Below, piece after piece: positions 6,051 to 24,295 of a stretch of 38,618 nt of DNA. The stretch comes from Patescibacteria group bacterium (GTDB lineage: Bacteria; Patescibacteriota; Minisyncoccia; UBA10092). Made by a program: the position numbers and the translations under genes. The notes below the pieces were generated by a model, which saw nothing but the letters and a program-made list of their open reading frames with translations, was not told where the DNA came from and made no database searches. Each line of letters starts with the position of its first letter. The first letter of the stretch is position 1. The stretch is from NCBI GenBank assembly GCA_043812515.1, contig JBDRMC010000001.1:1-38618 (forward strand), given 5' to 3'.

Positions 6051-6101
6051 AGTTGAGCCAAAATGATTGGCAAAAATCAGGTTTATTGTTACTGTAACGA
6101 T

Positions 6102-6392: not shown

Positions 6393-6429
6393 TTTGCAAC
6401 TTGAAGAAATTTCGATTCCCCCGCAAGTT

Positions 6430-6441
6430 ATATGTTATAAG
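6430..6441 (+). promoter_or_regulatory. putative extended -10 element (TGnTATAAG) 4 nt before gatA; identical 12-mer at 7841-7852 before the next gene
   Basis: atatgttataag precedes ATG 6446 and ATG 7857 at the same distance. Confidence 0.45.
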
Positions 6442-6445
6442 ATTT

Positions 6446-7834
6446 ATGGATATTAAGAAGCTGACAATAAGAGATGTTCAAAAAGGCATAAAAGAGAAAG
6501 ATTTCTCTGCCGAAGAATTGCAGGGTCAGTTTTTGGATTTAATCAAAAAAGAAAATCCCGACCTCAACGCCTATTTAACAATTTTTGATAAAGAAAAATT
6601 GCATCCGGCTACCACCAAGACAGAAGTCGCGAGTTCTGTGCTGTGTGGAGCGCCTTTGGCCGTTAAGGATAACATTTGCATTAAAGATACGGTTACCACC
6701 GCCGGCTCTAAAATCTTGGAAAATCATAAAGCGGTGTATGACGCTACGGTTATCAGCAAGCTCAAAACCGCCGGCGCGGTGTTTTTGGGAAAGACCAATA
6801 TGGATGAATTCGCCATGGGTTCTTCCACTGAAAATTCCGCTTTCGGCGTTACTAAAAATCCGCGTAATCACAGTCGGGTGCCGGGCGGTTCAAGCGGTGG
6901 CTCGGCGGCGGCTGTAGCAGCCGGCTTGGCGGTAGCGGCTTTGGGCTCCGATACCGGCGGCTCAATTCGCCAGCCGGCATCTTTTTGCGGCGTAGTGGGA
7001 CTTAAGCCGACTTACGGAAGGGTCTCCCGCCACGGCCTGATCGCAATGGCTTCAAGTTTGGACCAAATCGGACCCATAACCAAGAATGTTTACGATTCCG
7101 CATTGCTAATGAATATTATCAGCGGAACGGATAAAATGGATTCAACCGCCAGCAGTCAATCAGTGGTTGATTTTACAAAAAATCTTGGGCAAACAATCAA
7201 GGGACTTAAAATAGCTATACCGAAAGAATTCCCCAGCGAAAGTATTAAAAAAGCCCTTTCCAAATTAGAAGCGTTGGGAGCGCGCGTTGACCAGGTAAGT
7301 TTGCCGCACACCAAATACGCTCTGGCAACTTATTATTTAATTATGCCTTCCGAGGCGTCTTCAAACCTCGCCCGTTACGACGGAATTCATTATGGATTAT
7401 CCAAGAACGGCGACAACCTTTTGGACGCTTATTTAAAAAGCCGAACAAAAGGTTTCGGCGATGAAGTTCGACGCAGAATAATTTTAGGTACTTTCGCTTT
7501 GTCGTCGGGATATCATGATGAATATTATTTGAGAGCCCAAAAAGTCAGGACTTTAATCAGGCAAGATTTTGAAAAAGTGTTTGAGAAATTTGACGCGATA
7601 GTCGGACCGACTACTCCCACCACGGCATTCAAAATCGGAGAGAAAGAGGATCCATTGTCAATGTATTTGTCGGATATCTACACCGTATCGGTGAATTTGG
7701 CCGGCCTGCCGGCGATTTCAATACCCTGCGGAAAAATAGACGGACTTCCAATCGGTCTTCAGATTATCGGCAAGTCCTTTGACGAAGAAACGGTTTTGAG
7801 AGTTGGCCATCAGTACGAAAGCAGCGTCTTATAA
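6446..7834 (+). CDS. gatA: Asp/Glu-tRNA amidotransferase subunit A (copy 1)
   Basis: Amidase signature [38 protein letters not shown]; SNLARYDG; start placed at ATG 6446. Confidence 0.97.
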
Positions 7835-7856
7835 CAAAAAATATGTTATAAGTTAT

Positions 7857-8390
7857 ATGTCCCCTATGGCTCTTAATTTAAATAATTTAGAAAAGGCGGC
7901 AAGAGATTTTGACTTCAGTTCAATTATGGAAATTCTAAAAATAATCGGAATCAGCTTGTCTGTTATTTTTGGCATTCTTTTTGCTTGGACTGTCGCTAAG
8001 ATGAGAAGAAAGTTGGGCGCCAAAGTGGTTGAATTGAAAACCGAAGCAAATCCGCCAACGCCCGGCGAAAGCAAGTATGACGCCAAGTGGAAGGAGATTG
8101 CGGAGCATTTGCAATCAGTTCGCGAAACCGAATGGAAGTTCGCGGTGATAGAGGCGGATAATATCGTTGAAGAAATTTTAACCGGAGCCGGTTACCCCGG
8201 CGATACTCTGGGTGAAAAATTAAAACAGATAGACAAGAATCAACTAGCATCTATAAATGACATCTGGGAAGCTCATAAATTGAGAAATGTTATCGTCCAT
8301 AACCCTGATTATCAGGTTAGATACAATGACGCGCGCGTAGCCATTAGCCAATACGGGAAAGCGCTCCACGAACTAGGAGTGCTGGGCTAA
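7857..8390 (+). CDS. conserved CPR single-TM hypothetical protein (copy 1)
   Basis: One TM helix; AVIEAD..G.TLGEKLK..IWEAHKLRN.IVH motif shared with 19904..20425. Confidence 0.8.
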   Translation: MSPMALNLNNLEKAARDFDFSSIMEILKIIGISLSVIFGILFAWTVAKMRRKLGAKVVELKTEANPPTPGESKYDAKWKEIAEHLQSVRETEWKFAVIEADNIVEEILTGAGYPGDTLGEKLKQIDKNQLASINDIWEAHKLRNVIVHNPDYQVRYNDARVAISQYGKALHELGVLG

Positions 8391-9190: not shown

Positions 9191-9265
9191 GCAGTGGTAG
9201 CTTAGCTGGCCTAAAGCGCCTCCCTGTCACGGAGGAGACCGTGGGTTCGAATCCCATCCACTGCG
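9191..9265 (+). tRNA. tRNA-Asp(GTC)
   Basis: GCAGTGG/CCACTGC acceptor, CCTCC-CTGTCAC-GGAGG anticodon arm, GTGGG-TTCGAAT-CCCAT T arm, G discriminator. Confidence 0.95.
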
Positions 9266-9451
9266 CAATTGCCAACTAAAATACGCCCTTGTGGCGTTTT
9301 TTAGTTGGCACTTCGTGATGAGGGATTCGAAGGGTATTGTAAAAAAGTGAACTGCTTCACTTTTTTACAAACCCCGGCTGCGGGGGAAATTCGAGCGGGA
9401 ACCGCTTGCGGTCGCGAGAATTGGAGGAGCAGGAATCCCATCCACTGCGCA
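9249..9451. mobile_element. short non-coding element flanked by a 19-bp direct repeat of the tRNA-Asp 3' end
   Basis: gaatcccatccactgcgca at 9249-9267 and 9433-9451; internal inverted T-loop copy gggattcgaa 9322-9331; 15-bp-stem hairpin 9337-9370. Confidence 0.65.
9270..9310. terminator. hairpin, probable bidirectional intrinsic terminator after the tRNAs
   Basis: tgccaactaaaa-t-acgcc-cttgt-ggcgt-t-ttttagttggca. Confidence 0.7.
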
Positions 9452-9595
9452 CTTCGACAAGCTCAGTGTAAACAGTCAACATTTCTTTCTGAAAGCCATT
9501 AAAGAACGCTTAGCCGAACTAAATGGTTAGGCCGCGACTTTGCCGAAGAATAAGATTTAATCCAGATGTAACTTATTTTAAACCTCAAGTAAAAT

Positions 9596-10045
9596 TTACT
9601 CTTTTGTTTTTTTAAATGTGACGGCATGAATTTCTTCCGTCAATATATTATTGACTTTAACTAATCGGTGGATTTCATCCTGAAGTTTTAAAATTGCCTC
9701 TGCATCTTTATATGTTTGCTCCGCTTGTTTATCGGAAGCTCGACTCAAAACTTGCTGACCCACTGCTAAAATTGGCAGTGCAAATAATTGGACTAAATTG
9801 CTCAAAAACAATAAGAAGATGAATGGATATTGGTCTTCTCGGAACAACCAAAATCCTGCCGTAGCAAGAATCATCCAACCGAACATCCATATTACGAGGA
9901 CATAAAAAGCCCCCATTGTGCCGAACTTTTTGGTAATAAATACCGCTGAGCGGCCATTGAGTCCTAGGTGCTCATCTTTTGTGAGATGAGGTTTCTCTTT
10001 TGCCCTTTCTTCAATCCGAGGATGTGGTGTGTGTATATTTACCAT
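9596..10045 (-). CDS. DUF1003-like membrane protein
   Basis: Two TM helices; DQYPFIFL..LSN.VQL.ALPIL.VGQ pattern then coiled tail. Confidence 0.8.
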   Translation of the reverse strand: MVNIHTPHPRIEERAKEKPHLTKDEHLGLNGRSAVFITKKFGTMGAFYVLVIWMFGWMILATAGFWLFREDQYPFIFLLFLSNLVQLFALPILAVGQQVLSRASDKQAEQTYKDAEAILKLQDEIHRLVKVNNILTEEIHAVTFKKTKE

Positions 10046-10162
10046 TTATATATTATTTCCGCTACTTGAATTGATTATAACAAAATCCATAAAAATAGTA
10101 AGTAGCAGAATAAAGTAATCTACTGAGTTAATTATAAAAATTGTTTTTTCCATAAACTTATT

Positions 10163-10561
10163 TTATTTATTTAGATAAGTAATAGTTAATTGTAAAACTG
10201 TTGCAAACGAAGCCCATAGCAAATACGGAATTTGGATATATGCAATCCAGCGCGCATGCGGATAAATGGCCGCCATCGCCCAAACAAGCGTGCCTAAAAT
10301 CAACAAAATATCAATTGCCGCTAATAAATTATTTTTGAGTCCGAATTGCAAATAAGTAAAAGAAAAATTGAAAATAAGATTGAGGATAAATGGCAAAGCA
10401 ACCATAAATGGAATTTGATTCCGCCAGACCATATAAAACACCTTGCCAAAAGATAAGGCCATCAAAGCGTAAAGAAAAGTCCACACCGGGCCGAAAAGCC
10501 AGCTTGGCGGCGACCATGTCGGCTTTATTAAAGTTGAATACCAATTATACGCGCTGTTCAT
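10163..10561 (-). CDS. tspO: TspO/MBR tryptophan-rich sensory protein
   Basis: WYSTLIKPTWSPPSWLFGPVWTFLY and PYLLWASFATVL. Confidence 0.93.
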   Translation of the reverse strand: MNSAYNWYSTLIKPTWSPPSWLFGPVWTFLYALMALSFGKVFYMVWRNQIPFMVALPFILNLIFNFSFTYLQFGLKNNLLAAIDILLILGTLVWAMAAIYPHARWIAYIQIPYLLWASFATVLQLTITYLNK

Positions 10562-10581
10562 ATTTTTATTATACCACTTTT

Positions 10582-10663
10582 TTATTTATCTCCGGAATTG
10601 ATGATGATGGCGACAATAATCCCCACAACCACCACCCCCGATTATTATTAAAATTGAAATCAT
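10582..10663 (-). pseudogene. frameshifted copy of the 26-aa hydrophobic peptide gene at 11552..11632
   Basis: Near-identical DNA with one extra C in the run at 10635-10639 (82 vs 81 bp). Confidence 0.6.
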
Positions 10664-10697
10664 GTTTTAGAGATTTTAATTTTTTTGGCCAACTTCT

Positions 10698-10735
10698 ACA
10701 ACATTCTCACATTCTGCAGAATGTGAGAATGTTGT
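10698..10735. repeat. 38-bp perfect palindrome, ATTCTGCAGAAT-core family copy 1
   Basis: acaacattctcacattctg|cagaatgtgagaatgttgt. Confidence 0.95.
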
Positions 10736-11013
10736 TAGTTGGGAAAGGTTTTAATAAACTTACAAAAGGTCTTGCCATAGGGCGAGAGAGAATGAGCGAC
10801 TTCCCTGCCCTGATACTTTTTATCAACCAGGCCGGCCTGAACTAACTTTCTGGTGTGTTCGGAAATAGTTTTCATATTGCAATCCAGCTCATCGGCAATC
10901 TTCTCTAAACTAATGCCATCGTTACTGGCAATCAAATTCAATATATCAATGCGACGGTGATTGGCCACACCTTTGAAATGTCTTTCCAATTGTTTAGCGG
11001 TTTTCGTTTGCAT
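10735..11013 (-). CDS. ArsR/SmtB-family winged HTH regulator
   Basis: FKGVANHRRIDIL...IADEL....TISEHTRKLVQAGLV. Confidence 0.88.
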   Translation of the reverse strand: MQTKTAKQLERHFKGVANHRRIDILNLIASNDGISLEKIADELDCNMKTISEHTRKLVQAGLVDKKYQGREVAHSLSPYGKTFCKFIKTFPN

Positions 11014-11045
11014 ACTCCCCCATTTTACAACACTTTAAAAAACAT

Positions 11046-11069
11046 TCCAACATTCTGCAGAATGTTGGA
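11046..11069. repeat. 24-bp palindrome, family copy 2
   Basis: tccaacattctg|cagaatgttgga. Confidence 0.92.
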
Positions 11070-11078
11070 GTATCTATT

Positions 11079-11477
11079 TTATCTTTCCCATTCTTTAATA
11101 TCTGGATGAAAATCAACTTGATGTTCAGGAATTCCTAAAGAAATTCCGTATTCTTTCGCCTCGTTATATTGTTCTTTGTTTTTTCTATCAATTTTGAAAA
11201 CTTTATCGCGAAAAATTATAAAATGCGTTTCGTCATTTTTAAAATCCGCGTACCAGGAACCGCCATGTCCCCTATCGAGCGCATGACTTATTTCCTCGGC
11301 AATCGCCTCCGCTTTATCTTCAGGAATTTCTACGGTATGCAAAGTCCACTGTTTAAGCCAAGGAGTTTCATGCTCGTTAGTCACCGGCTCAACTTCGGTC
11401 TCTAAAATCTTGACCTCTTTTAAAACACCCGTATTTTCTAAACTTTCTTCAATTATTACACCTTTATAATTTTTCAT
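11079..11477 (-). CDS. hypothetical protein (132 aa, soluble)
   Basis: Clean ORF, YKGVIIEESL...WTLHTV...WYADFKN; no function recognised. Confidence 0.8.
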   Translation of the reverse strand: MKNYKGVIIEESLENTGVLKEVKILETEVEPVTNEHETPWLKQWTLHTVEIPEDKAEAIAEEISHALDRGHGGSWYADFKNDETHFIIFRDKVFKIDRKNKEQYNEAKEYGISLGIPEHQVDFHPDIKEWER

Positions 11478-11520
11478 AAATTTATTTTCAAATTTCTTAT
11501 TAATTCAATACTATACTATG

Positions 11521-11552
11521 ACATTCTCATATTCTGCAGAATGTTGGAGTGT
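11521..11552. repeat. imperfect palindrome, family copy 3
   Basis: acattctcatattctgcagaatgttggagtgt; left arm resembles copy 1, right arm resembles copy 2. Confidence 0.88.
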
Positions 11553-11632
11553 TATTTATCTCCGGAATTGATGATGATGGCGACAATAATCCCCACAACC
11601 ACCACCCCGATTACTATTAAAATTGAGAGCAT
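11552..11632 (-). CDS. small single-TM peptide MLSILIVIGVVVVGIIVAIIINSGDK (26 aa)
   Basis: ATG..TAA ORF of 81 bp read by hand (below the ORF-track cutoff); second copy at 10582..10663. Confidence 0.55.
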   Translation of the reverse strand: MLSILIVIGVVVVGIIVAIIINSGDK

Positions 11633-11652
11633 GGTTTTATTGGCTGATTTTT

Positions 11653-11690
11653 ACAACACTCTCACATTCTGCAGAATGTGAGAGTGTTGT
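11653..11690. repeat. 38-bp perfect palindrome, family copy 4
   Basis: acaacactctcacattctg|cagaatgtgagagtgttgt; compensatory change relative to copy 1. Confidence 0.95.
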
Positions 11691-11703
11691 TATTGAGTTA
11701 GTT

Positions 11704-11766
11704 TTATCTTTCCCATTTTTTAATGTCCGGATGAAAATCAACAATCGCGCCTTTATAATTTCCTAT
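11704..11766 (-). pseudogene. internally deleted remnant of a homolog of 11079..11477
   Basis: Reads IGNYKGAI-VDFHPDIKKWER*, versus MKNYKGVI...VDFHPDIKEWER*. Confidence 0.75.
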
Positions 11767-11770
11767 AAAT

Positions 11771-12526
11771 TTATTTTTTAATTATTTCTTCAGATGAAAT
11801 GAATTGTTTTTGCACATCTCTCTCGAATTGCCGTAATTCTCCTTCAGCGATGATTTGATAATAAGAGTCATTAAGTTTATTTAACGGACAGAAAAAAAGT
11901 TGCTTTGGATTTTTTGGGCTTCCTCCTATTCCAATGGCAACGAAAACCGGCAATTTATGGCTTTCGCCATATATTCTGTAATTTTTTCCCTTTCTCTTAT
12001 CCCACTCTATGCCGCCTTTATAGAAATAGGAACGATATTTACATTCAACAGCCAACATCTTCCCGGTCTTAATATGCCGAAATGTAAAATCGGGGTTGGT
12101 ATCAGATTCCACATGACGTTTAAGCACTTTAGAAAAATCTCTCGTTTTATCAACGATTACCCAAATATCTGTCGGGAAAAGTAAGGCGATATATTTTTCA
12201 AATTGATAACCCTTCCCATAATAATCATAATAACTCCAAAGAAACGTTCCGAATACAATTGCCGTCATGAAATCTATAACGCGCCAAATGTTCACGCTAT
12301 AGAGATGAATCGGAATGATAGGATTAAAAATTATAATTGCCGCAATAAAGGCAAGGAGCCAATAAAATTTTCGGCTCTGATATACGGTATAGGCAAGAGC
12401 AATCCCACTCAAAGAAACCGCCCAGCGCAGTATCGCAAAATCTCCTTGATATAAACCTACAGACGCGACCAAAAGTATTATGATAACTCCCCATATTAAA
12501 ATGCGCAGTATAATTTCAGAATTCAT
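11771..12526 (-). CDS. membrane-anchored PD-(D/E)XK nuclease-like protein (DUF6804-like TM domain fused to nuclease)
   Basis: 4 TM with IIFNPIIPIHL....W..ID; then KG.QFE...NPDF...AVECKYRS. Confidence 0.7.
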   Translation of the reverse strand: MNSEIILRILIWGVIIILLVASVGLYQGDFAILRWAVSLSGIALAYTVYQSRKFYWLLAFIAAIIIFNPIIPIHLYSVNIWRVIDFMTAIVFGTFLWSYYDYYGKGYQFEKYIALLFPTDIWVIVDKTRDFSKVLKRHVESDTNPDFTFRHIKTGKMLAVECKYRSYFYKGGIEWDKRKGKNYRIYGESHKLPVFVAIGIGGSPKNPKQLFFCPLNKLNDSYYQIIAEGELRQFERDVQKQFISSEEIIKK

Positions 12527-12565
12527 AAATTTATTTTAGTAATTTTTTTGTTAAACAAAACTAAA

Positions 12566-13051
12566 TTAATCTAAATTTAAATTTTCTTTCCACTTATCTT
12601 TGAATTTATTTTCTAAAATTTTCAAAATCTCCTTTTGTTGAAAAATTATGCGAACATTCTTTGTCCTTATTGGCTTATGATGTTTTTTATTCAACCAAAT
12701 ATTCCAATCTTTTCTAATTAAATTTTTCATCTGTTTCACATTCAAAATATAAAATTCTGGATTTTTATTTTTTAATTTTACTAGAATATACGGGCAAGTT
12801 ATTTTTTTATTTAAATCCCCGCTCATTTTTTTAATATCTTTTATTAACACGATGTGAAAATTATCTCCTGATGATGTTTTAACTTGAACTGGTAATGTTT
12901 TATATTTACCTTCTTTAAAAATAAGAATGTCGTAAGCCCTTGTATTTCTAGCTGTAATAAGTGCTATATAGCCCATCCTACTGAGTTCCGCCGCTGCGTA
13001 ATAAACACCAGTAATACCCACTAAGTTTTTTTCAAGATTTCTTTTTTTCAT
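12566..13051 (-). CDS. small PD-(D/E)XK-fold endonuclease-like protein
   Basis: G..GVYYAAAELSRMG....RN..AYDIL.....VQVKT. Confidence 0.7.
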   Translation of the reverse strand: MKKRNLEKNLVGITGVYYAAAELSRMGYIALITARNTRAYDILIFKEGKYKTLPVQVKTSSGDNFHIVLIKDIKKMSGDLNKKITCPYILVKLKNKNPEFYILNVKQMKNLIRKDWNIWLNKKHHKPIRTKNVRIIFQQKEILKILENKFKDKWKENLNLD

Positions 13052-13084
13052 AATTTTATCTTAATTTTTTTGTGGGAAACGAAG

Positions 13085-13969
13085 TCATAAGTTTAAAGTT
13101 CCAAGATAATAATCATCCCCTGAAATATTCTCATCGTCTAAAAAATCAATGGAATAGTCATAATTAGAAACGAAAACATGTACTTTTTTCCCAGCACAAT
13201 CAAGAGTTATATCCCCGGCGGAATTTTGTGTTAGTGTACTGTAATTGCAATAATAATTTAAGTCTTCCGAGGGCGCTTCACCAATGATAATGATTTTAGG
13301 ATTCATTTTCTCCAACCATTCTTCAGGCACTTTTCCTGTATCTCTACCATGATGAGGGGCAAAAAGAATATCTACCTTTGATAATTTAACAGTATCCTTT
13401 ATTTTTTCCATAAAATCGGTTTCTAAATCACCCATCCACAAAACAGATACTCCGTCTTCCACGCTATATTTAATAATCGCTGAAGTATTATTAGGACTTC
13501 CATCTTCTTCTTCTGCTATTTTTAATGCTTCTATGTAATCTTTATTGCTCGTTATCGGCCAAAGAATATCTATCCCAGCCGAACCCCTTTTTTCGCATGC
13601 CTTATTCATCCATTTTCTTGTACAGTCTCTTTCTATATAAAATGCTTTCTTACTTGAATCGCGCAGAGCGCAGTAATGCTTAAAATCTTCCGTTTCAATC
13701 TTCTTTGTTGCGTTATTTTTTATGCAATAAAAGTTGAGAATATCAATATTATCATCTAAATATTTCAGTCCTCGAAAATGGTCTTCGTCGGGATGGGTGG
13801 AAATAAATCTAGTTACACCTTTTCCTTGATGAGTATGTTTTATTTCTTTGACTATCCTCTCTTTATTATCGTCAGATAAATAGCAATCAATAATACTAAA
13901 ATTATCGCTATTATGCTTGATGTAAAATGTATCCCCGTCTCCAACTGAAAATGATTTTATAATACTCAT
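13085..13969 (-). CDS. ComEC/Rec2-type metallo-beta-lactamase-fold hydrolase (B)
   Basis: SVGDGD, ISTHPDEDH, NNTS, WMGD, APHHG. Confidence 0.88.
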   Translation of the reverse strand: MSIIKSFSVGDGDTFYIKHNSDNFSIIDCYLSDDNKERIVKEIKHTHQGKGVTRFISTHPDEDHFRGLKYLDDNIDILNFYCIKNNATKKIETEDFKHYCALRDSSKKAFYIERDCTRKWMNKACEKRGSAGIDILWPITSNKDYIEALKIAEEEDGSPNNTSAIIKYSVEDGVSVLWMGDLETDFMEKIKDTVKLSKVDILFAPHHGRDTGKVPEEWLEKMNPKIIIIGEAPSEDLNYYCNYSTLTQNSAGDITLDCAGKKVHVFVSNYDYSIDFLDDENISGDDYYLGTLNL

Positions 13970-14460
13970 ACTTTTTTGTTTCTTGCTTCAATCCGGCGAG
14001 TAATGTATTTAGTTTGTTTCCAATATGCACAAAGAAATATAATCAAAAGTATAATGGTTAGAATATATGGACTGTAAGTCCCTAATACCGGAAATTTATA
14101 CTCAATTGCGCTATAAAATTTCAAAAGGAGGAGTAGAGAAAATAAAGAACAAAATGTTCTGTACATATTATTTGCTTCCAAAAGTATTTCAATTTTAGGA
14201 TCTTCTTTAGAAGCACATACGAATTCGGGATAGGACGAAAATTTTAAATATAAAATTTTTCTCAGCAACGGTTCAATTACCAACGAACCAAACCTGCTTA
14301 TCACTAAACCAATAAAATAATAAACAAAAACACCTATAATAATATTTTCTTGAATAAAATGAAATGACATAAACTCGTCAGCAATAACGGCAAAGAGTAT
14401 CCCCGGCAAGAGGTAATTAAAAAGATTGTATGAAGTTAATTTGTTTAAAAAGTCGTTCAT
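13966..14460 (-). CDS. uncharacterised ~4-TM membrane protein
   Basis: SYNLFNYLLPGILF...; hydrophobic helices; ATGA overlap with the downstream gene and 1-nt gap to the upstream gene. Confidence 0.8.
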   Translation of the reverse strand: MNDFLNKLTSYNLFNYLLPGILFAVIADEFMSFHFIQENIIIGVFVYYFIGLVISRFGSLVIEPLLRKILYLKFSSYPEFVCASKEDPKIEILLEANNMYRTFCSLFSLLLLLKFYSAIEYKFPVLGTYSPYILTIILLIIFLCAYWKQTKYITRRIEARNKKV

Positions 14461-14461
14461 A

Positions 14462-15514
14462 TTATTCCTCAACTATTGAATGAAATGGCTCTGCTATTGC
14501 CGAACCCCAACCACGTCCATTCCCACCATTGTGATGGAGAAGCGGGACACCACGCGTTACAAATACATTGGCTCCATACTTTTGTAGACCATTAGTGACT
14601 TTCTTTGCAGGATGTTTTGGTGAATCCTTTGAGGCCGACACAAAGGCAGTTCCTGCTTTAATTTTTTTCAAAACATTACTACTAATATTTCGTTTACTTC
14701 CATGATGAGGAACATCCAAAAATACCAAATCAGTGAGAAGAATACCTAAACTTTCGGCGTAAACGATAGAATTAAGCAAGGCCGTCTTCCCCGCATCACC
14801 AGTAAAAAGAAGTTTATGGTTATCGAGAGTGAAGAGTATAATCGTACTTGTATTATTCTCACCCGATGTAGTGTCTTCGTTGTCATTCAATAGATCAATA
14901 TGCCAGAAATCCTGTATGCGCTTGATAACTTCTTCTGCCACCTTTTGGACTGGTGCAAAAACACCAAATACACCTTTTGGCTCTGGAGTTGATTTAAAAA
15001 CGGCTAAAAGATTTTCATAATATTCTTGAGACGGACCTAGAATCTGCACTGCCCCATTGAAACCTGTTATGCCCTGAAATGGTTCTACAATCGGTATGTT
15101 TTTCTTGTTTGCCAACGCTTCCAGATCGCTTGCGTATTGTAGCGATTTCTCAAGTCGATCTTCCAACCCCGATGCAGTAATTTTCCCATTCTTGAAAAAG
15201 TTCTTTATGTCATTAGCATGTTCCCATGGGCGGTGCATTGCTAATTGTCCAACGTTTAATTTATCCAATACAACATATAGACCTGAAGCGTGATCAGCGT
15301 CAGGATGCGTGGAAACAATCAAATCAACACGATCTGTACCATAATAATTTTTTATGTGGTCAACCATCAACTCTCCGGACTCCTTAAAACCGCCATCAAT
15401 AACTACGACGAATTGCTGTTCTCTCGGGCCGTTTAAATTTCCAAAGCGAAGTGTGATAGCATCTCCGCTTTTTTCACCTTCGCCGACTGGAATGTAATCG
15501 ATTTCGTATGCCAT
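14462..15514 (-). CDS. ComEC/Rec2-type metallo-beta-lactamase-fold hydrolase (A)
   Basis: VGEGEKSGDA, VIDGG, STHPDADH, ENNTS, LFTGD, VPHHGS, KHP. Confidence 0.9.
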   Translation of the reverse strand: MAYEIDYIPVGEGEKSGDAITLRFGNLNGPREQQFVVVIDGGFKESGELMVDHIKNYYGTDRVDLIVSTHPDADHASGLYVVLDKLNVGQLAMHRPWEHANDIKNFFKNGKITASGLEDRLEKSLQYASDLEALANKKNIPIVEPFQGITGFNGAVQILGPSQEYYENLLAVFKSTPEPKGVFGVFAPVQKVAEEVIKRIQDFWHIDLLNDNEDTTSGENNTSTIILFTLDNHKLLFTGDAGKTALLNSIVYAESLGILLTDLVFLDVPHHGSKRNISSNVLKKIKAGTAFVSASKDSPKHPAKKVTNGLQKYGANVFVTRGVPLLHHNGGNGRGWGSAIAEPFHSIVEE

Positions 15515-15576
15515 ATTATAATTTTTTATATAATTCTCCTTTTATTTTCTGTAATTGACTATCAATTTTATTAACT

Positions 15577-15602
15577 AAAACAAGCCGGGTTGCCCCGGCT
15601 TG
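15577..15602 (-). terminator. intrinsic terminator-like hairpin in the leader of the MBL operon
   Basis: Minus strand caagccggg-gcaa-cccggcttg-tttt. Confidence 0.6.
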
Positions 15603-15645
15603 AATTCTAAGTTCTTGTCGAGGCGTCGCCTCATCTTATGCTTAT

Positions 15646-15674
15646 ATTATAGCAAATTTTAAATAAAAAATCAA
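15646..15674 (-). promoter_or_regulatory. sigma70-type promoter TTGATT-17-TATAAT with extended TG
   Basis: Minus strand ttgatt ttttatttaaaatttgc tataat. Confidence 0.65.
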
Positions 15675-15687
15675 TTTCTTAATTATT

Positions 15688-16362
15688 TCAACTTGCTATT
15701 TTTTCTCGCAACGCCTCAAAACTAATATACCGAATACAGAAATTTTCAGATTGCACTTTTTTGATAATCTCATCAAATTTATTTTCAATTTCTTTATTTA
15801 TTTTTTCATGGAATTTTGGGGGTGAATCAATAGCGTAAACAACCCATATATGCCCGCCATTTGAATTCAATTGTTCTTTTGCCTTATTTATATGATCAGT
15901 AAATTTTTTGCTAATACGGTCAATATATTCTTTTTTTATTTTTTCTACTTCATCTTCGGTAAACGCAGGACTGATATCACAAAACGATCCTTCGTTTAAT
16001 TCCTCTTGTCTTTTGCGTTCTTCAATACTATTATTGATTGTTTTAACTTCAACAAAAATATTATTTGAACGAAAATCGGGCGTTCTTTGATTTTCCTTTT
16101 CCGGTAAAAATTCTATATTATCGTAGAAGGCGCAAGCGATATTTATTTCGTGAAATACATCATTATGTTGCTCATGTGTTTCATTTTTCTTTTTGTTTGT
16201 TTTGTCTTTTAATATTTTCTTTTGTTCGGCTGATAAGTTTTTAACAAAAGAATCTATTTTTACCATATGAGCTTCTTGATAGATAGTGCCGTTTCCTCTA
16301 TCTTTTAGGTAATTTTCGAAGCCTAATTCAATAAATGATTGATATAATTTTTCATCTGCCAT
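15688..16362 (-). CDS. hypothetical protein with a PD-(D/E)XK-like motif
   Basis: FHE...RTPDF.....FVEVKTI. Confidence 0.6.
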   Translation of the reverse strand: MADEKLYQSFIELGFENYLKDRGNGTIYQEAHMVKIDSFVKNLSAEQKKILKDKTNKKKNETHEQHNDVFHEINIACAFYDNIEFLPEKENQRTPDFRSNNIFVEVKTINNSIEERKRQEELNEGSFCDISPAFTEDEVEKIKKEYIDRISKKFTDHINKAKEQLNSNGGHIWVVYAIDSPPKFHEKINKEIENKFDEIIKKVQSENFCIRYISFEALREKIAS

Positions 16363-16440
16363 AATTTTATACTTTTCGCATTGTAGTGATTTTATTTTCC
16401 AGATTTAGTTCGGTTGCATTGTTCACTATGGAAACGAGAC

Positions 16441-18912
16441 TTATTTTAATAATTCATATTGAAACAGCTTGGGTTGAATTTCTGCTTCATAGTATTTAGC
16501 CAATTTTGTCTTTAAACTATTGATCGCCGTATTGAGTTCTGCGTAATCGTAAATCCACTCGTCATTTTCATTTTTTTCACGAGTGTTTAGCTCTTCGTCG
16601 ATTTGATATGTACCGTACATATACTTTGGATTGTATTCTTTGGTAGACTTTGCTTTTGACAGAACATCGGCAAAAGTATCCAGCAACTCTTTTTCCTCGT
16701 CCGTAAGTTTATAGATTTTTAATTTATTACTTGCTACTGTGCCTTTGTCAAAACAAAGTTCGTTTTTGTAAAGTCGGCCGTCGCTAGCATCAAAGCTACG
16801 ACAGTGATTACGCCGACTAAGACAAGTAAATATGAAGCATGCTTTCAAAAAATCTTTGTCTTTTAAATAGCGGTCGCCACCGTCAGCAGTAGTAAAATAA
16901 ATATCTCGTTCATACCAATTTTTCTGCGGGTAGAGTTTAGCCGTAAAGAGTGGCAGCTTCTCAATGAAATTATCAGAGCGAAGGTAAAAACCATTTTTTC
17001 TCGCATTCAGAGTTGTTCTCACTAATGCCTGTTTTGGGGCACCAAGTGTGTAACCCACTAAGTATTCATAGGCTAAGATATTTTCATTAAATATTTTTTC
17101 AGTACTAGTTGCACTTGTTTTTTCTGCCTCCCGTCCAGCACCATCACAATACACACCATCAACTACGTCATCATCAAATGTTCTTTTATCAAAATAGAAT
17201 TCGTTAAACGTTTTGTGCACTTTTTTCACAATGACACCTTTGACAAAGAAGATATCATCGTGTTCGGATGTATCTTTGGTATCGATGTCGAAGGCCTTAA
17301 GTGCTACCTCTTCTCGACTCTCATCTTGATTTCGCCACAATATACAACTAATAGCACTTGGCCCAGCATGAAAATGCTGGCGATTAAATAAAAAGCCGTC
17401 GATAAACTTCTTTTCAGTAAGTCCATGCGACTTCCAATATTTAATTGGTGAGAATAAAACAAAAGCGTCATCGGGTTTCGTTAGATAATATTTCCAACCA
17501 GACCAGATGAATAGATTGGCAATTTCTTTTGATGGAATCATCCCCCTTGTTTCTGAGGTGAATGAGCCCTTAAAAGCCTTTGCGACAAAACTATCTTTTT
17601 TAACATCCCGCGTAAGGCCGTCTTGCCTTATCTTATCAGCGCTGGTATCACTATATGGTGGATTTTCAAACAATATAATGTTTGTCTTTTTGTCTTTCAC
17701 ATAGCTCAGAAGCATACCTATGCTGTCGTTATATTCTTTCGTCATCCCAATCGCCTTTTGGCCGGTAACAAACTGTTCGCTTAAAGCGTCACCGCCATCA
17801 ACCAGAGCTTCTGTATTGTCGATTTCCTGAGGTGGCGGAATTATGAGCTTAACACGATCTCCGATGCGCTCATTTAATACTACCCATTCCTTTAATTCAT
17901 ATGTGTTGACAACAGCATGAGACAACTCATTGTCAAAAATATAGTCATGGAGCGAAAGTTTTGTCCTATGTTTTTCCAGTTCACCTACGGTGATTTCGCT
18001 AAAATTGCGCTTATTGTAAAACGTCGTGATAATATCAGCCTTATCCTGTAAATATTTTGTTTTTAGAGATTTGTCGATATAGCGGCTTAGCTCGCCAATT
18101 GTAATATCATTCACCTGTTTATCGGTTAAAAACTCTTCCAGGTTGCCTGTACCGGCGCAGCGGTCAAGAATGATATAGTCATGGCCTCTCGGTATCTGCT
18201 TAATGGCTTTACGAACCAATTCAGTAGCTTTTAGACAATATGCCGGAGGAGTATAAAAAGCGCCAAGCTCCTTTTTATGCTGCTTATCATTAAGCAGATC
18301 CATGATGTATTTAAAATCCTTTTCATCGCCTGCCCACGGATAGATATAGGCAGCAAAATACTTGGGAGCACGTAACTCCTTAAAAAGTTTAATTTTACTA
18401 GCAGTCGGATTTTCTCGATAAAACCGATTTGACCAACCGACAACATCGAATAAGTCAATATGAATTTTGGTGTATTTTTCTACATCTAGAATTTCTGTAA
18501 TGCGTCGTAGACCAGCTAAATTACTGTAGTCAATCTTTTCTGGTTGAATTTTGGTTGCAAAATCAGCATTATTTTTACTTGCAGCGCCGGCATAGGGTAT
18601 TTCCATATATGAAAGAAAATCTCCGGAATTAAATAAGTAAGCATTTTCTTCATTTAATGCGGCTAACAAGATTTGCGCTGGCACTGGTTCACCCTTAATT
18701 CTTCTATGGCTAAGATATTTTATTGCCTGAAAGAGTGCTTTGTTAATGTCTGGGATAGTAAGTTTAAACTCAAATAACGTGCCTTTATATACCCCGTCAG
18801 TATTATGGGTTAGTTCTACATCGGCATCTATCCTTAGATCGGCAAAGAATTGTATCTGACCTTCACGTTCAGATAAGAAATTCTTTTTTGATTTAGTTAA
18901 TTTTTTTACCAT
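16441..18912 (-). CDS. putative type IIG restriction-modification enzyme (nuclease + amino-methyltransferase + TRD)
   Basis: N-terminal TDG....LFEFK; GAFYTP; motif I LDRCAGTGNL; motif IV ENPPY; start placed at ATG 18912. Confidence 0.75.
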   Translation of the reverse strand: MVKKLTKSKKNFLSEREGQIQFFADLRIDADVELTHNTDGVYKGTLFEFKLTIPDINKALFQAIKYLSHRRIKGEPVPAQILLAALNEENAYLFNSGDFLSYMEIPYAGAASKNNADFATKIQPEKIDYSNLAGLRRITEILDVEKYTKIHIDLFDVVGWSNRFYRENPTASKIKLFKELRAPKYFAAYIYPWAGDEKDFKYIMDLLNDKQHKKELGAFYTPPAYCLKATELVRKAIKQIPRGHDYIILDRCAGTGNLEEFLTDKQVNDITIGELSRYIDKSLKTKYLQDKADIITTFYNKRNFSEITVGELEKHRTKLSLHDYIFDNELSHAVVNTYELKEWVVLNERIGDRVKLIIPPPQEIDNTEALVDGGDALSEQFVTGQKAIGMTKEYNDSIGMLLSYVKDKKTNIILFENPPYSDTSADKIRQDGLTRDVKKDSFVAKAFKGSFTSETRGMIPSKEIANLFIWSGWKYYLTKPDDAFVLFSPIKYWKSHGLTEKKFIDGFLFNRQHFHAGPSAISCILWRNQDESREEVALKAFDIDTKDTSEHDDIFFVKGVIVKKVHKTFNEFYFDKRTFDDDVVDGVYCDGAGREAEKTSATSTEKIFNENILAYEYLVGYTLGAPKQALVRTTLNARKNGFYLRSDNFIEKLPLFTAKLYPQKNWYERDIYFTTADGGDRYLKDKDFLKACFIFTCLSRRNHCRSFDASDGRLYKNELCFDKGTVASNKLKIYKLTDEEKELLDTFADVLSKAKSTKEYNPKYMYGTYQIDEELNTREKNENDEWIYDYAELNTAINSLKTKLAKYYEAEIQPKLFQYELLK

Positions 18913-19025
18913 ATTTTGTTTCCCAAAATCCCCCTTCTTTTCCCTAACAATACCCCACTTTGGTGGGGTTGTAAAATGAAAAATAGGCGCGAAAAAAAAT
19001 AACATAAATTATTTTCCGAAGCTTA

Positions 19026-19142
19026 TGAAAGCATTTTAGCGTGGTTTCAAATTACATATTTCATATGCTATCGCATTTATATATGTAATTTGAATAAAAT
19101 GCTTTCACCCGCCCGAACGACTGAAATCGTTCAGTTGGGCGG
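19026..19142. repeat. two adjacent bulged hairpins (19026-19107 AT-rich; 19109-19142 GC-rich REP-like)
   Basis: tgaaagcatttta..ttcaaattacatat / atatgtaatttgaa-taaaatgctttca; ccgccc-gaacga..tcgttc-agtt-gggcgg. Confidence 0.8.
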
Positions 19143-19169
19143 CTGTGGATAGATGGCTGGATATAATTC

Positions 19170-19421
19170 TCAATAAATCCCTTGGCGGTGGCAGACGCGG
19201 ATTATGACGACAACTAAAATTCCTTTATAGACTTTATAAATTATTCTATAGGGCCAAACTCGATAAGAATAAAGGCCGGCTAATTCTCCTTCTAATTTTT
19301 TACCCGAAAAAGGATCAACCGCGATTAACGGAAAAACCGCCAAAATTCTTTTCCGATATTGAGCCGGAATTTTATCAAGCTCTTTTTGCGCTCTTTTTTC
19401 GAATTTTAGTTCCCACGCCAT
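19170..19421 (-). CDS. type II TA RelE/ParE-family toxin
   Basis: RAQKELDKI...P..GKKLEGEL.GLYSYRVWPYRIIY. Confidence 0.9.
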   Translation of the reverse strand: MAWELKFEKRAQKELDKIPAQYRKRILAVFPLIAVDPFSGKKLEGELAGLYSYRVWPYRIIYKVYKGILVVVIIRVCHRQGIY

Positions 19422-19734
19422 ATTTGTTTTTTCCTTTATCCGCTAAAATATAACCATGTTTGGCCATGATGTCGTCCAAAGTAGCCCATTTTTTATATTC
19501 GCCGGTTTTGATCGCGCGATCCGTTTCTTTAATATCTTTATCTAATCCTGGGCATTCTCTCATTACTTCCAAGGTTTCCTGTAAGGATTCAAAATCTTCC
19601 GCGGACATTAAAACGGCCTTGGGCCGGCCCTTTTCGGTTAAGGTGTAAAAATTATCGGGTTTTTGAACTTCTTCGGCGATTTCAAAAATTCTTTTTCTGG
19701 CCTCGGAAATTGATATGGTTGTTTTTGTATTCAT
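19375..19734 (-). CDS. type II TA Phd/YefM-family antitoxin
   Basis: ISISEARK......LTEKGRPKAVLMSAEDFESLQETLE. Confidence 0.9.
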   Translation of the reverse strand: MNTKTTISISEARKRIFEIAEEVQKPDNFYTLTEKGRPKAVLMSAEDFESLQETLEVMRECPGLDKDIKETDRAIKTGEYKKWATLDDIMAKHGYILADKGKNKYGVGTKIRKKSAKRA

Positions 19735-19745
19735 GTTGGTTTTAT

Positions 19746-19781
19746 ATGTACATAATAACGTACATGCTAATCTTTCGTCAA
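19746..19781 (-). promoter_or_regulatory. TA promoter (TTGACG-18-TATTAT) overlapped by two GTAC-centred operator palindromes
   Basis: tgtaca-taataa-cgtaca; YefM-type operators are TGTACA-centred. Confidence 0.6.
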
Positions 19782-19903
19782 TAGCTATAGCAGCTTCTTT
19801 TTGAAGTATTTTTCAAGTTTTTCCCTTGGCCTATCAATTTTTGGCAAATCTTTTATTTTCATAAATCCCCTTCATTAAAACCCGCCTTAGATGGATTTTT
19901 TTA

Positions 19904-20425
19904 TTAATCAATAAACTCCAGTTCTTTGAGGGCTTTTTCGTAGGCGCGGACTCCGAATTCTATTTCGCTTCTGGCGATTGTATATTCCGAACCGTGCACC
20001 AGTTGATTTCTCAATTTATGCGCCTGCCAAATTTCTTCTATATTGGAAACTTGGGCGGAGTTTAAATATTTCAACCGGTCGGCCATTGACTCCCCCGGAA
20101 GCCCCATCAGTTTCAATAAATCATCAAAAATCTTATCGGCTTCTATCAACGCCATGTGTAAATTGGCTTCATCATTTTTATTTAAACGAGAAACGACTTT
20201 TTGCCACGAAGCATTTAAATTCTTCTTCGGCGTTTTGCCGCCTTTCAAAAAATTACTAGTGGCTTTGAAAAATTTCTTTAATGTGTCAACTTTATTTATC
20301 AAAATTATAACCAGAACACCAAAAACCAACGTCAAAAAAATACCGAGAATTTTAAGATTGACGACCCACTCCGAGCCGCCGAGATTGATGACGCTTAAAC
20401 GGAGATTATTTGTTATATCGGCCAT
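19904..20425 (-). CDS. conserved CPR single-TM hypothetical protein (copy 2)
   Basis: ALIEADK..G.SMADRLK..IWQAHKLRN.LVH; homolog of 7857..8390. Confidence 0.8.
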   Translation of the reverse strand: MADITNNLRLSVINLGGSEWVVNLKILGIFLTLVFGVLVIILINKVDTLKKFFKATSNFLKGGKTPKKNLNASWQKVVSRLNKNDEANLHMALIEADKIFDDLLKLMGLPGESMADRLKYLNSAQVSNIEEIWQAHKLRNQLVHGSEYTIARSEIEFGVRAYEKALKELEFID

Positions 20426-20447
20426 TAAATAAATTATACGCATGGAT

Positions 20448-21890
20448 TTATTTACTCATATTTTCAACCAATTTGGCAATTTTTAGCAATTTAACATCTT
20501 CAAAATTGTTGCCGATAAGCTGAAGTCCGACCGGCAATCCATTCGCCTCTTTTATGGGAATGGAAATCGCCGGAACGCCCGCCAAGTTAATTGAAACCGT
20601 ATAAATATCCGCCAGATACATTGATAACGGATCCTGGGTTTTTTCTCCAAACTTGAAAGCGGTTGTCGGAGACGTGGGCGTTATAATCGCGTCAACTTCT
20701 TTGAAAGCATGAGTAAAATCCTGTTTTATAAGCCGTCTGACTTTTTGAGCTCTTGTGTAATACGCGTCATAATATCCGGCCGAAAGAACGTAAGTGCCGA
20801 GCATTATTCTTCGTCTCGCTTCGGCGCCGAATCCTTCTCCCCTGCTTTCAAGATAAACGTCAAGCAAATTTTGCAGTTTTTCTTTTTTATTTATTTTGGA
20901 ATGCCCATATTTTATTCCATCAAATCTGGCAAGATTGGCCGACACTTCGGCGGGCATAATGATATAGTAAGCCGCCAGCGCCCACTCGCTGTAGGGCAAG
21001 GAAATTTCTTCTATTCGCGCCCCTTCTTTTTCCAGTTTTGATATTACCGATTTTATGTTTTTTTCTATTTCCGGGTCCAGACCATGAGTAAAAAATTCCC
21101 GGGGGACGCCAAATTTTATTTCTTCTATATCTACAGGTTTATCATGATAACTTTGCCATTCTCTATTGGCGCTTGTTGAGTCTAAAATATCCCCGCCGCG
21201 AATAATTTCAAAAACTGCGGCGGCGTCGTCTACGTTTCTGGTAATCGGCCCGATTTGGTCCAAGGACGAGGCCATAGCCATCAATCCATGGCGGGAAACG
21301 GCGCCGTAAGACGGTTTAAAACCGACAACGCCACAAAAACCGGCCGGTTGGCGGATTGAACCGCCCGTGTCGGAACCCAGCGCGTAAACAGAAAATCCGG
21401 CTTTAACCGCGGCGGCGGAGCCACCGGAAGAGCCGCCGGGCACTCTGCTTGGGTCAACCGGATTTTTTGTCGGGCCGAAAGCGGAATTTTCGGTTGAACT
21501 GCCCATCGCAAACTCATCCATATTTGTTTTGCCGATAAAAACCGATTCTTCTTCCTTAAGTTTTTTAATTACGGTAGCGTCATAAGGCGCTGTATAATTT
21601 TCAAGAATTTTTGAAGCGGCTGTGGCTTTGGCGCCGCGAATTAAAATATTATCTTTAATCGCGGCCGGAATTCCGGCCAACATTTCAATCGGCTCGCCTT
21701 TGGAAATTCTGGCATCAACTTTTTTTGCCGATTCAAGCGCCCCCTCTTCGGTCAAAGATAAAAAAGCGTGGATTTCGCTATCATGTTTTTTAATCTCGTC
21801 AAAATGCGCCCGGGTTAGTTCAACCGAAGTTATTTCTTTTTCTTCCAGAAGCTTATGCGCTTCTTTGATTGTCAGTTCTTTTAAATTCAT
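20448..21890 (-). CDS. gatA: Asp/Glu-tRNA amidotransferase subunit A (copy 2)
   Basis: [44 protein letters not shown]. Confidence 0.97.
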   Translation of the reverse strand: MNLKELTIKEAHKLLEEKEITSVELTRAHFDEIKKHDSEIHAFLSLTEEGALESAKKVDARISKGEPIEMLAGIPAAIKDNILIRGAKATAASKILENYTAPYDATVIKKLKEEESVFIGKTNMDEFAMGSSTENSAFGPTKNPVDPSRVPGGSSGGSAAAVKAGFSVYALGSDTGGSIRQPAGFCGVVGFKPSYGAVSRHGLMAMASSLDQIGPITRNVDDAAAVFEIIRGGDILDSTSANREWQSYHDKPVDIEEIKFGVPREFFTHGLDPEIEKNIKSVISKLEKEGARIEEISLPYSEWALAAYYIIMPAEVSANLARFDGIKYGHSKINKKEKLQNLLDVYLESRGEGFGAEARRRIMLGTYVLSAGYYDAYYTRAQKVRRLIKQDFTHAFKEVDAIITPTSPTTAFKFGEKTQDPLSMYLADIYTVSINLAGVPAISIPIKEANGLPVGLQLIGNNFEDVKLLKIAKLVENMSK

Positions 21891-22180
21891 TCCAATATTG
21901 ATGGGACTTTAAAATAATCTTCTTCGCGATTTGGGGCGGCATTCAATATTTGTTTTCGCATTTCCGGGTCGGAAATGGTTGTTTCATCGTCCTGTCTGGC
22001 AACGCTCTCCAAGTCCGTGCCTCCGGTCATCGGCTCGACTTTTTCAACGTTAACTTCCGATAATTTTTGGACATAGCCGATTATGGAAGATAAATCTTCG
22101 GCGAATTTTTCTTTTTCTTTTTCTTCCAGTTTCAATCGGGCCAATTCCGCGATTTTTTCAACCTCTTTTTTGGTTAACAT
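21887..22180 (-). CDS. gatC: Asp/Glu-tRNA amidotransferase subunit C (copy 2)
   Basis: EVEKIAELARL...YFKVPSIL. Confidence 0.95.
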   Translation of the reverse strand: MLTKKEVEKIAELARLKLEEKEKEKFAEDLSSIIGYVQKLSEVNVEKVEPMTGGTDLESVARQDDETTISDPEMRKQILNAAPNREEDYFKVPSILE

Positions 22181-24294: not shown

Positions 24295-24295
24295 A

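Follow-up and report, generated by a model that had tools for sequence, protein, structure and literature searches.

A double-MBL variant of the phage defence candidate PDC-M48, related to 6A-MBL, in an ultra-small bacterial genome

The phage defence candidates (PDCs) are a set of 145 systems, called untested in their source preprint, that were collected by 'guilt-by-embedding', that is, through relatives lying inside BREX, DISARM and type I restriction–modification (RM) loci (10.1101/2024.01.29.577857). One of them, PDC-M48, combines a membrane component (A) with a metallo-β-lactamase (MBL)-fold component (B). MBL-fold enzymes also occur in operon type 6a, usually of two genes, in which an E2-E1-JAB gene accompanies the MBL gene (Iyer et al. 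2006, PMC1779556). Under the name 6A-MBL this arrangement is cited as a validated anti-phage system (10.1101/2025.09.30.679545, PMC13276650, PMC13700489), the primary report being that of van den Berg et al. 2024, known here through citing papers. Here we analyse a three-gene module in a 38,618-nucleotide stretch of DNA (the window; contig JBDRMC010000001.1) from a Patescibacteria group bacterium, in which two MBL genes flank the gene of a small transmembrane (TM) protein. The locus belongs to the untested candidate PDC-M48, of which it is a variant with two MBL genes; it is related to 6A-MBL, and is probably related to Csx27 as judged by weak sequence similarity.

The module was found at 13085-15514 as three intact minus-strand open reading frames (ORFs), exactly in the positions and order given in the original prediction:

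15514..14462, minus strand: MBL-1, a 350-amino-acid ORF for a cytoplasmic ComEC-type MBL-fold hydrolase, PDC-M48B (PDLC04676 type)
14460..13966, minus strand: the TM protein, 164 amino acids from ATG, a four-helix membrane protein, PDC-M48A
13969..13085, minus strand: MBL-2, a 294-amino-acid ORF for a ComEC-type MBL-fold hydrolase, PDC-M48B (PDLC04673 type)
15581..15674, minus strand: leader 5' of MBL-1, with a promoter-like site (15674..15646) and a GC-rich hairpin with a T run (15602..15581)

All three proteins were recognized by PADLOC-DB v2. The TM protein matched PDC-M48A (PDLC04670) at 3.3e-62, residues 5-166 of its 168-amino-acid form (see below) aligning with positions 1-162 of the 164 in the model, and both enzymes matched PDC-M48B over their full length, MBL-2 through PDLC04673 (8.7e-144) and MBL-1 through PDLC04676 (1.2e-84). 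Both the A and the B components are present, in adjacent genes on the same strand that overlap or lie 1 nt apart, and the assignment to PDC-M48 is close to certain. The earlier view of the architecture as undescribed, with no named system to match, does not survive this check, which returns a listed but predicted candidate. What distinguishes the locus from PDC-M48 as usually found is that two B genes of distinct subfamilies flank A, a pair that occurs in this form in 0 of 123 related loci. MBL, lactamase and ComEC go unmentioned in the DefensePredictor preprint.

The tight coupling proposed for the three genes was evident from the sequence of both junctions. The TAA stop of MBL-1 (14464-14462) is followed by one spacer nucleotide and the ATG of the TM gene at 14460, and the TM stop and the MBL-2 start share an ATGA overlap. 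The TM ORF can also be read from a TTG at 14472, giving 168 amino acids; the ATG at 14460 matches the start of the family and of the PADLOC model. The promoter-like site in the leader was found by a consensus scan. The 176-nt intergenic stretch upstream of MBL-1 folds at -39.5 kcal/mol (z -4.7), no Rfam family matched the leader RNA, and its hairpin may be a putative terminator of the upstream 224-amino-acid gene.

Two enzymes, one membrane protein and their conservation

MBL-1 matches Pfam Lactamase_B (1.2e-11), and MBL-2 gives sub-threshold Pfam MBL matches only. The metal motifs, described from the start as intact, are kept in both enzymes and are invariant among their relatives: D18, D40, H70, D74, H75, D240, H270, H271 and H301 of MBL-1 in an alignment of 22 sequences, and D13, D28, H59, D61, D63, H64, D181, H206 and H207 of MBL-2 in one of 19. 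Among proteins of solved structure, ComEC MBL domains come closest to both enzymes in sequence (9ic4_A; E 2.9e-9 for MBL-1 and 6e-6 for MBL-2). The AlphaFold2 model of MBL-1 (pLDDT 86.1) has the ComEC MBL domain 9ic4 as its top fold match in the PDB (E 4.2e-15, TM-score 0.76 by target), followed by pneumococcal phosphorylcholine esterase. The Competence channel domain PF03772 was absent from all three proteins in a Pfam scan, and no signal peptide is apparent by eye at either MBL N-terminus. Since the nearest relatives by sequence and by fold are the ComEC MBL domain, the description of these proteins as ComEC-type MBL enzymes without a channel domain is correct. Apart from this domain, the locus differs from ComEC/Rec2 in having neither the Competence channel nor the OB/DUF4131 part, in that the MBLs are separate soluble proteins, and in a four-TM partner that is unrelated to the ComEC channel. 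MBL-1 further matched the PADLOC models of LmuA from Lamassu (2.5e-28), of RTasMBL, the MBL associated with defence-associated reverse transcriptases (DRT) (3.5e-23), and of Avs1a (2.4e-12). The C-termini read HSIVEE in MBL-1, whose relatives share an acidic tail, and LGTLNL in MBL-2, whose relatives end in YIGTLNL.

The TM protein had been expected to span the membrane about four times. Its model (pLDDT 76.6) has four long helices (2-30, 40-68, 88-122 and 125-163) and a short one (77-86), and four hydrophobic stretches can be read from the sequence. It belongs to no Pfam or NCBIfam family, and every cluster retrieved from the Protein Atlas was an unnamed one of the same family. At E<=1e-3 we found 1923 homologues, from named sources that include Patescibacteria and Methanosarcina; among the matches listed (119 besides the query) identity was 56-86%, and none had a Pfam domain. 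The invariant residues form four motifs located at helix ends. By the positive-inside rule, applied by eye, these polar motifs are predicted to face the cytoplasm, the short outer loops being variable, and the family ends in a conserved basic tail. A Foldseek search of the PDB with the model returned nothing at E<=0.001 (best 2.3). In a wide VIA-align search MscL, a microtubule protein and TRAP shared the top Z of 5.0, a value far lower than helical models attain by chance, and no fold was assigned. A complex prediction of MBL-1, MBL-2 and the TM partner, each with its own alignment, scored 0.00 in a run without controls, which speaks neither for nor against binding.

To place the module among its relatives we scanned one genome per species, which gave 300 TM relatives of which 80 loci were kept, and added 43 metagenome loci, making 123. 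An iterated MBL profile found an MBL ORF beside the TM gene in 78 of the 80 genome loci (the exceptions being L029 and L080), and an MBL accompanies the TM gene in 34 of the 43 metagenome loci; six of the nine misses there are short or end-limited contigs or weak TM matches. Typically the MBL is single, lies upstream or downstream of the TM gene and comes from one of at least five mutually distant subfamilies. MBLs on both sides were seen in 6/123 loci (L038, L019, L122, L133, L135 and L137), with other MBL subfamilies; a few others (L001, L002, L040 and L111) carry a pair of MBLs on the same side. The closest relative of MBL-1 is 87% identical (L005) and that of MBL-2 82% identical (L001). 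An MBL-1-type gene upstream together with an MBL-2-type gene downstream of the TM gene was found in none of the 123 loci. Because most loci carry one MBL and the exact three-gene layout recurs nowhere in this set, the conserved unit is the TM protein plus one MBL; co-occurrence thus holds for the pair, and not for the operon of three that had been put forward.

In the window the two common forms, MBL upstream and MBL downstream, seem to share one TM gene. We give even odds to an origin from two overlapping two-gene systems, in which a cassette with the MBL upstream, of the type usual in candidate phyla radiation (CPR) bacteria, gained a TM–MBL-2 partner, so that one MBL would suffice and the other would be redundant or would serve another phage range. 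This view concerns architecture and is compatible with either of the mechanisms discussed below. In a maximum-likelihood tree of the TM family the window protein falls in a supported clade of 20 rows, mostly upstream-MBL loci from CPR bacteria, while its sister, L001, has MBL-2 downstream (layout TM, MBL-2, MBL). Across the tree the type of MBL partner switches at least 36 times, against a theoretical minimum of 12, and the single MBL in most loci, together with the origin of the closest MBL-1 and MBL-2 relatives from different loci, points the same way. On the other hand, both MBL genes of the window are intact, keep all invariant residues and are coupled to the TM gene, and flanked layouts recur (in the six loci above and in the 6A-MBL loci L102 and L103). 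The recurrence of such layouts with other MBL subfamilies suggests that the double-MBL form is selected.

The other genes around the module lie outside it, because only one of them recurs at any of the 80 loci: tblastn searches with the 854-, 224-, 161-, 251- and 132-amino-acid proteins of the surrounding island gave a sole match, to the 132-amino-acid protein, in L048. This protein (11079-11477, minus strand; of no known family) has a 70% identical homologue at L048:2985-3368, directly upstream of the TM gene in a metagenome-assembled genome of Methanosarcinales. When PADLOC was run on 139 of 240 eligible neighbour ORFs from 69 loci, the matches were mostly to MTase_II models (<=6 members each), with mad2 (4), SoFic (3) and MTase_III (3) following.

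Relation to 6A-MBL and Csx27

The TM family is linked to 6A-MBL. At L019, L079, L056, L067, L065 and L039 an E2-E1-JAB fusion of 750-922 amino acids stands immediately upstream of the TM gene, and at L062 split E1 and JAB-like genes stand there instead. In L019, L067 and L065 the fusion is NCBIfam 6A-MBL_cap2_3 (537-599 bits; cut-off 320), and the gene preceding it is NCBIfam 6A-MBL_enzyme (346-407 bits; cut-off 220).

We then searched for cap2_3 without bias towards the TM gene. Ten of 401 Pseudomonadota genomes were positive, including the seed genome, which left nine further loci. The gene that comes after cap2_3 differs among them. A distinct four-TM family follows directly in L100, L102 and L103, and one gene later, behind an MBL-1-type gene, in L101. 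Elsewhere the follower is a Csx27-like four-TM protein (L107), a protein with two hydrophobic segments (L105), an Endonuclease_NS, that is, a DNA/RNA non-specific endonuclease (L106), a 126-amino-acid protein (L104) or, in the single locus L108, a patatin whose gene overlaps cap2_3 (PF01734, 5.5e-20). The TM gene and cap2_3 overlap by 4 nt in L100, L102, L103 and L107. A second MBL lies behind cap2_3 in four of the nine loci (L101, L102, L103 and L106); that of L102 is of the window's MBL-2 type, and that of L103 is a PDC-M48B protein (8.7e-145).

The distinct four-TM family, of 248-288 amino acids (L100:1443-2237, L101:8863-9729, L102:8463-9209 and L103:7737-8534), pairs with PDC-M48B-type MBLs and has no Pfam or PADLOC match. 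Kinship of this family with PDC-M48A or Csx27 was considered and rejected, there being no detectable similarity (E 0.27-0.42).

The 6A-MBL enzymes have tails rich in Ala, Gly and Ser; seven of 13 carry PRAG or MRAG at or near the end, and two more end in HG. In L019, L056, L067, L079, L100, L101 and L107 the PRAG or MRAG motif is terminal or stands 2-5 residues before the end. Such a tail is like a ubiquitin-type precursor awaiting cleavage by JAB, and the Gly-ending PRAG tail may, to judge from these sequences, be a defining mark of the 6A-MBL family. Neither enzyme of the window carries it, and against the 6A-MBL_enzyme model (NF058524) MBL-1 reaches 25.1 bits and MBL-2 35.9 bits, the cut-off being 220. 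Because the MBLs fall so far below the cut-off and their tails differ from PRAG, the window is not a 6A-MBL system. Prok-E2, ThiF and JAB gave no match in the island proteins that were scanned; the search for E2-E1-JAB did not extend to other parts of the genome. As far as sequence comparison goes, what the window has in common with 6A-MBL are parts and layout: an MBL-fold enzyme of ComEC-like type; the TM family, whose gene immediately follows cap2_3 in L019, L067, L065 and others; and the order MBL ... TM–MBL of some 6A-MBL operons (L019, L102 and L103).

The second family with which the TM protein may be connected is Csx27, the four-TM accessory protein of type VI-B1 CRISPR systems, for which our definition is taken from secondary accounts. 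The reference Csx27 adjoins a Cas13b-like gene and a CRISPR array, and one source labels it as the type VI-B accessory protein Csx27. Four-TM proteins of the Csx27 family are reported together with natural-transformation components and are predicted to be channels for single-stranded DNA (ssDNA), according to the accounts of Makarova et al. 2019 in PMC7642515 and PMC11662929; the title of that study also names a ubiquitin network. The family traits recur here, in the four helices of the TM model and in a gene context that fits these secondary accounts, with an MBL in 78 of 80 loci and E2-E1-JAB or split genes upstream in some. By similarity the link is weak. The TM protein matches the PADLOC Csx27 model marginally (E 0.097), the L107 protein more strongly (0.0036). 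With hhalign, A1 against one Csx27 gave E 0.0024 at a probability of 12%, and 120 TM-family sequences against five Csx27 gave a probability of 57.6% (E 1e-4) over 54 columns in the first two helices, to which the similarity is confined; the L107 protein aligned with Csx27 over 177 columns at 62%. An N-terminal motif and a helix-2 motif seem to be common to both families. In contrast to Csx27, the TM protein is shorter (164 versus about 207 amino acids), and neither Cas13b nor a CRISPR array is present here. The association seen here may already be described in the 2019 work of Makarova and colleagues.

Candidate mechanisms

The TM protein occupies the slot that a patatin or other TM families fill in 6A-MBL operons, and this position after cap2_3 can, by analogy, be equated with the variable-effector slot of CBASS-like operons (CBASS, cyclic-oligonucleotide-based anti-phage signalling system). 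Since the slot is interchangeable in this way, we tentatively take the TM protein to be the effector and the MBLs to act upstream of it. TM proteins of known systems are believed to be effectors (Rousset et al., PMC9122126), and the predicted cytoplasmic position of the conserved face would fit an input from inside the cell. In one preprint (PMC11601596) 'Type II CBASS/Pycsar/MBL' are grouped as systems whose E2-E1 conjugates 'their respective signaling enzymes'. The tail of the 6A-MBL enzymes, which seems to be of the conjugation type known from the CD-NTases of type II CBASS, would likewise place the MBL upstream.

Our preferred reading, with a probability of roughly 0.4, is that the module is a 'type I' counterpart of 6A-MBL lacking Cap2/Cap3, an anti-phage module with the TM protein as effector and the MBLs upstream of it. 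One tightly coupled transcription unit would encode two ComEC-type MBL phosphodiesterases or nucleases of the cytoplasm together with an inner-membrane protein of four helices that is Csx27-like. Infection would switch on the MBL enzymes, which would hydrolyse a nucleic-acid-type substrate and trigger the TM protein via its conserved cytoplasmic face; the TM protein would then damage membrane integrity, leading to abortive infection. Two divergent MBLs acting on one TM protein would provide two inputs to one output. The order from MBL to TM protein, and any pore activity, we infer. The scheme has a parallel in type I CBASS/Pycsar, whose two-gene form pairs an enzyme with a small TM protein, Cap2/Cap3-type genes being added in the elaborated form; the enzyme here, however, is a hydrolase and not a nucleotide cyclase, and a signal molecule is hypothetical.

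One hydrolase–TM system already described, which we take to be the one named Rst_Hydrolase-3Tm, was considered as a match and rejected. According to Rousset et al. 2022 (PMC9122126) that system uses a HAD-like hydrolase with a TM protein, whereas the enzymes here have the MBL fold.

Several observations weigh against the preferred reading. The defence MBLs whose biochemistry is described in the literature consulted are all DNase effectors: trypsin-MBL is one, and HamMAB requires an active MBL. Among solved folds the ComEC nuclease domain is nearest, and in the two-gene form of type 6a (PMC1779556) the effector could only be the MBL itself. For the TM protein no solved fold matches, so pore formation is without structural support. 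The PDC-M48A family occurs in 0 of the nine unbiased 6A-MBL loci, of which just one has the patatin, both window enzymes score low against the 6A-MBL enzyme model and are without its tail, and the exact pair of flanking MBL types has no second example among the 123 loci. The neighbour counts stand without a background control, and no enrichment in defence islands is claimed for that reason. Finally, the name PDC-M48 does not occur in the main text of the literature searched, nor were experiments on it found there, in keeping with the wording of the source preprint.

Some of these points favour a different mechanism, the membrane-tethered nuclease of the original prediction, in which the effector role falls to the MBLs: a four-TM protein, serving as dock or DNA conduit, would keep them at the inner membrane, and they would degrade phage or plasmid DNA as it enters. 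This model resembles the channel proposal credited to Makarova et al. 2019. Two MBLs would then mean two nuclease specificities. Though doubtful in its own right, this is a live model and nearly as likely as the preferred one, because the defence MBLs in the literature consulted are DNases, the fold is that of a nuclease and type 6a can consist of two genes; it is not favoured over the TM-effector alternative. By sequence and by fold the MBLs are nearest to ComEC nuclease domains, their PADLOC relatives (LmuA, Avs1a and the DRT-associated MBL) are effector modules, and the catalytic residues are invariant in both. The trypsin-MBL module of Hachiman, Avs and pAgo variants is reported to contain a defence-associated MBL-fold protein that acts as an autoinhibited DNase; unlike those variants, the locus has no trypsin-like protease, helicase or STAND partner. 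The conserved face of the TM protein is cytoplasmic in the model, as a dock would require, its tail is conserved and basic and that of MBL-1 relatives conserved and acidic, and Csx27-family channels are predicted to serve ssDNA transport or degradation (PMC7642515). However, exchange of the TM slot with a patatin phospholipase and with other TM families is the behaviour of an effector rather than an anchor. Conservation at 50-86% identity between archaea and different bacterial phyla, against less than 30% between the MBL subfamilies, would be unexpected in a mere anchor. The sparing of host DNA by a constitutive cytoplasmic nuclease is also left unaccounted for.

A bolder version of the preferred reading, which we regard as improbable, would make the module part of a hydrolase-based CBASS-like pathway. 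The MBLs would be sensing or signal-producing enzymes rather than terminal nucleases, PDC-M48 the minimal 'type I' form and 6A-MBL the 'type II' form under ubiquitin-like regulation, with the TM protein as a cytoplasm-gated effector; the double-MBL form would then place two independent sensors on one pore.

Genomic island and mobile contexts

The genome of 441 kb (21 contigs, 91% complete, contamination 6.4%) has a single copy of the TM gene, which none of 40 relatives carries, five of them of the same genus. The module lies on an island:

9267..19900: island, an insertion of ~10.6 kb and low GC between tRNA-Asp and a 179-amino-acid gene
9191..9266, plus strand: tRNA-Asp(GTC), the island anchor (ARAGORN; Rfam tRNA, 68 bits)

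In the same-genus genomes G002 and G004 a tRNA-Met/tRNA-Asp pair stands ~90-165 bp from the homologue of the 179-amino-acid gene (19904-20443 in the window), and it is from this direct neighbourhood that 9267-19900 is identified as an insertion. GC content is 0.32-0.39 at 10-20 kb and 0.42-0.45 at 1-8 kb. No att-like repeat of the tRNA-Asp 3' end (25 nt, <=3 mismatches) was found in the window, and no integrase was seen among the ORFs covered by general domain scans.

The defence surroundings first described for the module are confirmed in part. The toxin–antitoxin (TA) pair, ParE/Phd, is on the island. The RM enzyme reduces to the 854-amino-acid protein, a possible candidate for a type IIG-like methyltransferase, as suggested by N6_Mtase/Eco57I clusters in the Atlas and by motifs recognized on inspection; it has no Pfam, PADLOC, NCBIfam or PDB match. 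The PD-(D/E)XK nucleases of the island are seen by motifs only, and the sole Pfam PDDEXK_1 match (860-2041) lies outside it. The 224-amino-acid protein has no sequence relatives in the PDB.

Relatives of the module are mobile elsewhere. In P2-like coliphages a convergent pair of TM and MBL-1-type genes lies directly after gpA, that is, in the gpA-gpQ hotspot, and the pair was found in 45 of 5426 complete E. coli genomes. This hotspot is reported to hold anti-phage systems (Rousset et al., PMC9122126). Nine plasmids carry the TM gene. Six Clostridium perfringens plasmids of 12-14 kb (H7-H12) have a TM homologue that is 48-49% identical.

An anti-phage role is thus probable for the module, and the support for it is contextual, not experimental: it comprises the PADLOC candidate, the acquired island with its TA pair, the pairs in the P2 hotspot and the TM genes in 6A-MBL operons. 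A function other than defence would be accessory DNA uptake or nucleotide scavenging, as a minimal ComEC analogue, or that of an addiction module of the island, and we consider it very improbable. Ultra-small bacteria rely on scavenged nucleotides, which would suit such a role. PGAP labels the E. coli homologue 'ComEC/Rec2 family competence protein', and secondary accounts tie the Csx27 family to natural-transformation components. Against this stand the absence of the module from all 40 relatives and its position on an insertion, the lack of a Competence domain in the TM protein, and the presence of homologues in 6A-MBL operons and at a phage-borne hotspot of anti-phage genes. The genome also has a separate gene with the Competence domain (PF03772, 174.7 bits) on another contig, G000:C12:21456-22202, albeit with two TGA codons. 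These codons are in frame, while the long genes of the window are open under table 11, and the gene may be broken, lie on a contaminant contig or raise a question of recoding.

Other features of the window are repeats and duplicated genes. A perfect or near-perfect palindrome of 38 nt occurs four times (10698, 11036, 11520 and 11653), 57 nt are duplicated exactly (10582-10638 and 11552-11608), and a 41-nt repeat at 11077 and 11702 is 93% identical. These repeats, at 10582-11742, bracket an ArsR-like helix-turn-helix gene (10735-11013) and the 132-amino-acid gene (11079-11477), and may be putative operator sites or mark a small duplicated cassette. Inverted paralogous gene sets flank the island (5106-8390, plus strand; 19904-25312, minus strand), each with a YceG-like gene, an amidase (GatA-like) gene and a small protein of 179/195 amino acids. 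A motif of 45-57 nt just upstream of the 854-amino-acid gene (18992-19048) has copies of 84-91% identity in two same-genus genomes (L088 656-711 and 11398-11450; L089 1699-1743), where in one genome it stands between the 179-amino-acid gene and tRNA-Asp; a recombination site or an intergenic element present in several copies would be possible explanations.

Of this ultra-small genome of 441 kb, ~10 kb is devoted to an acquired island of probable defence genes. PDC-M48 itself is widespread, with TM homologues in CPR bacteria, in Methanosarcina and in prophages of E. coli, and one TM family links the PADLOC candidate PDC-M48, the validated 6A-MBL system and, weakly, the Cas13b accessory protein Csx27. 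The TM–MBL pair of the E. coli P2 hotspot offers a tractable model in which to decide whether defence MBLs act only as nucleases or may instead work ahead of a membrane effector. If the hydrolase-based CBASS-like pathway were true, the same logic would explain the role of Csx27 beside Cas13b.

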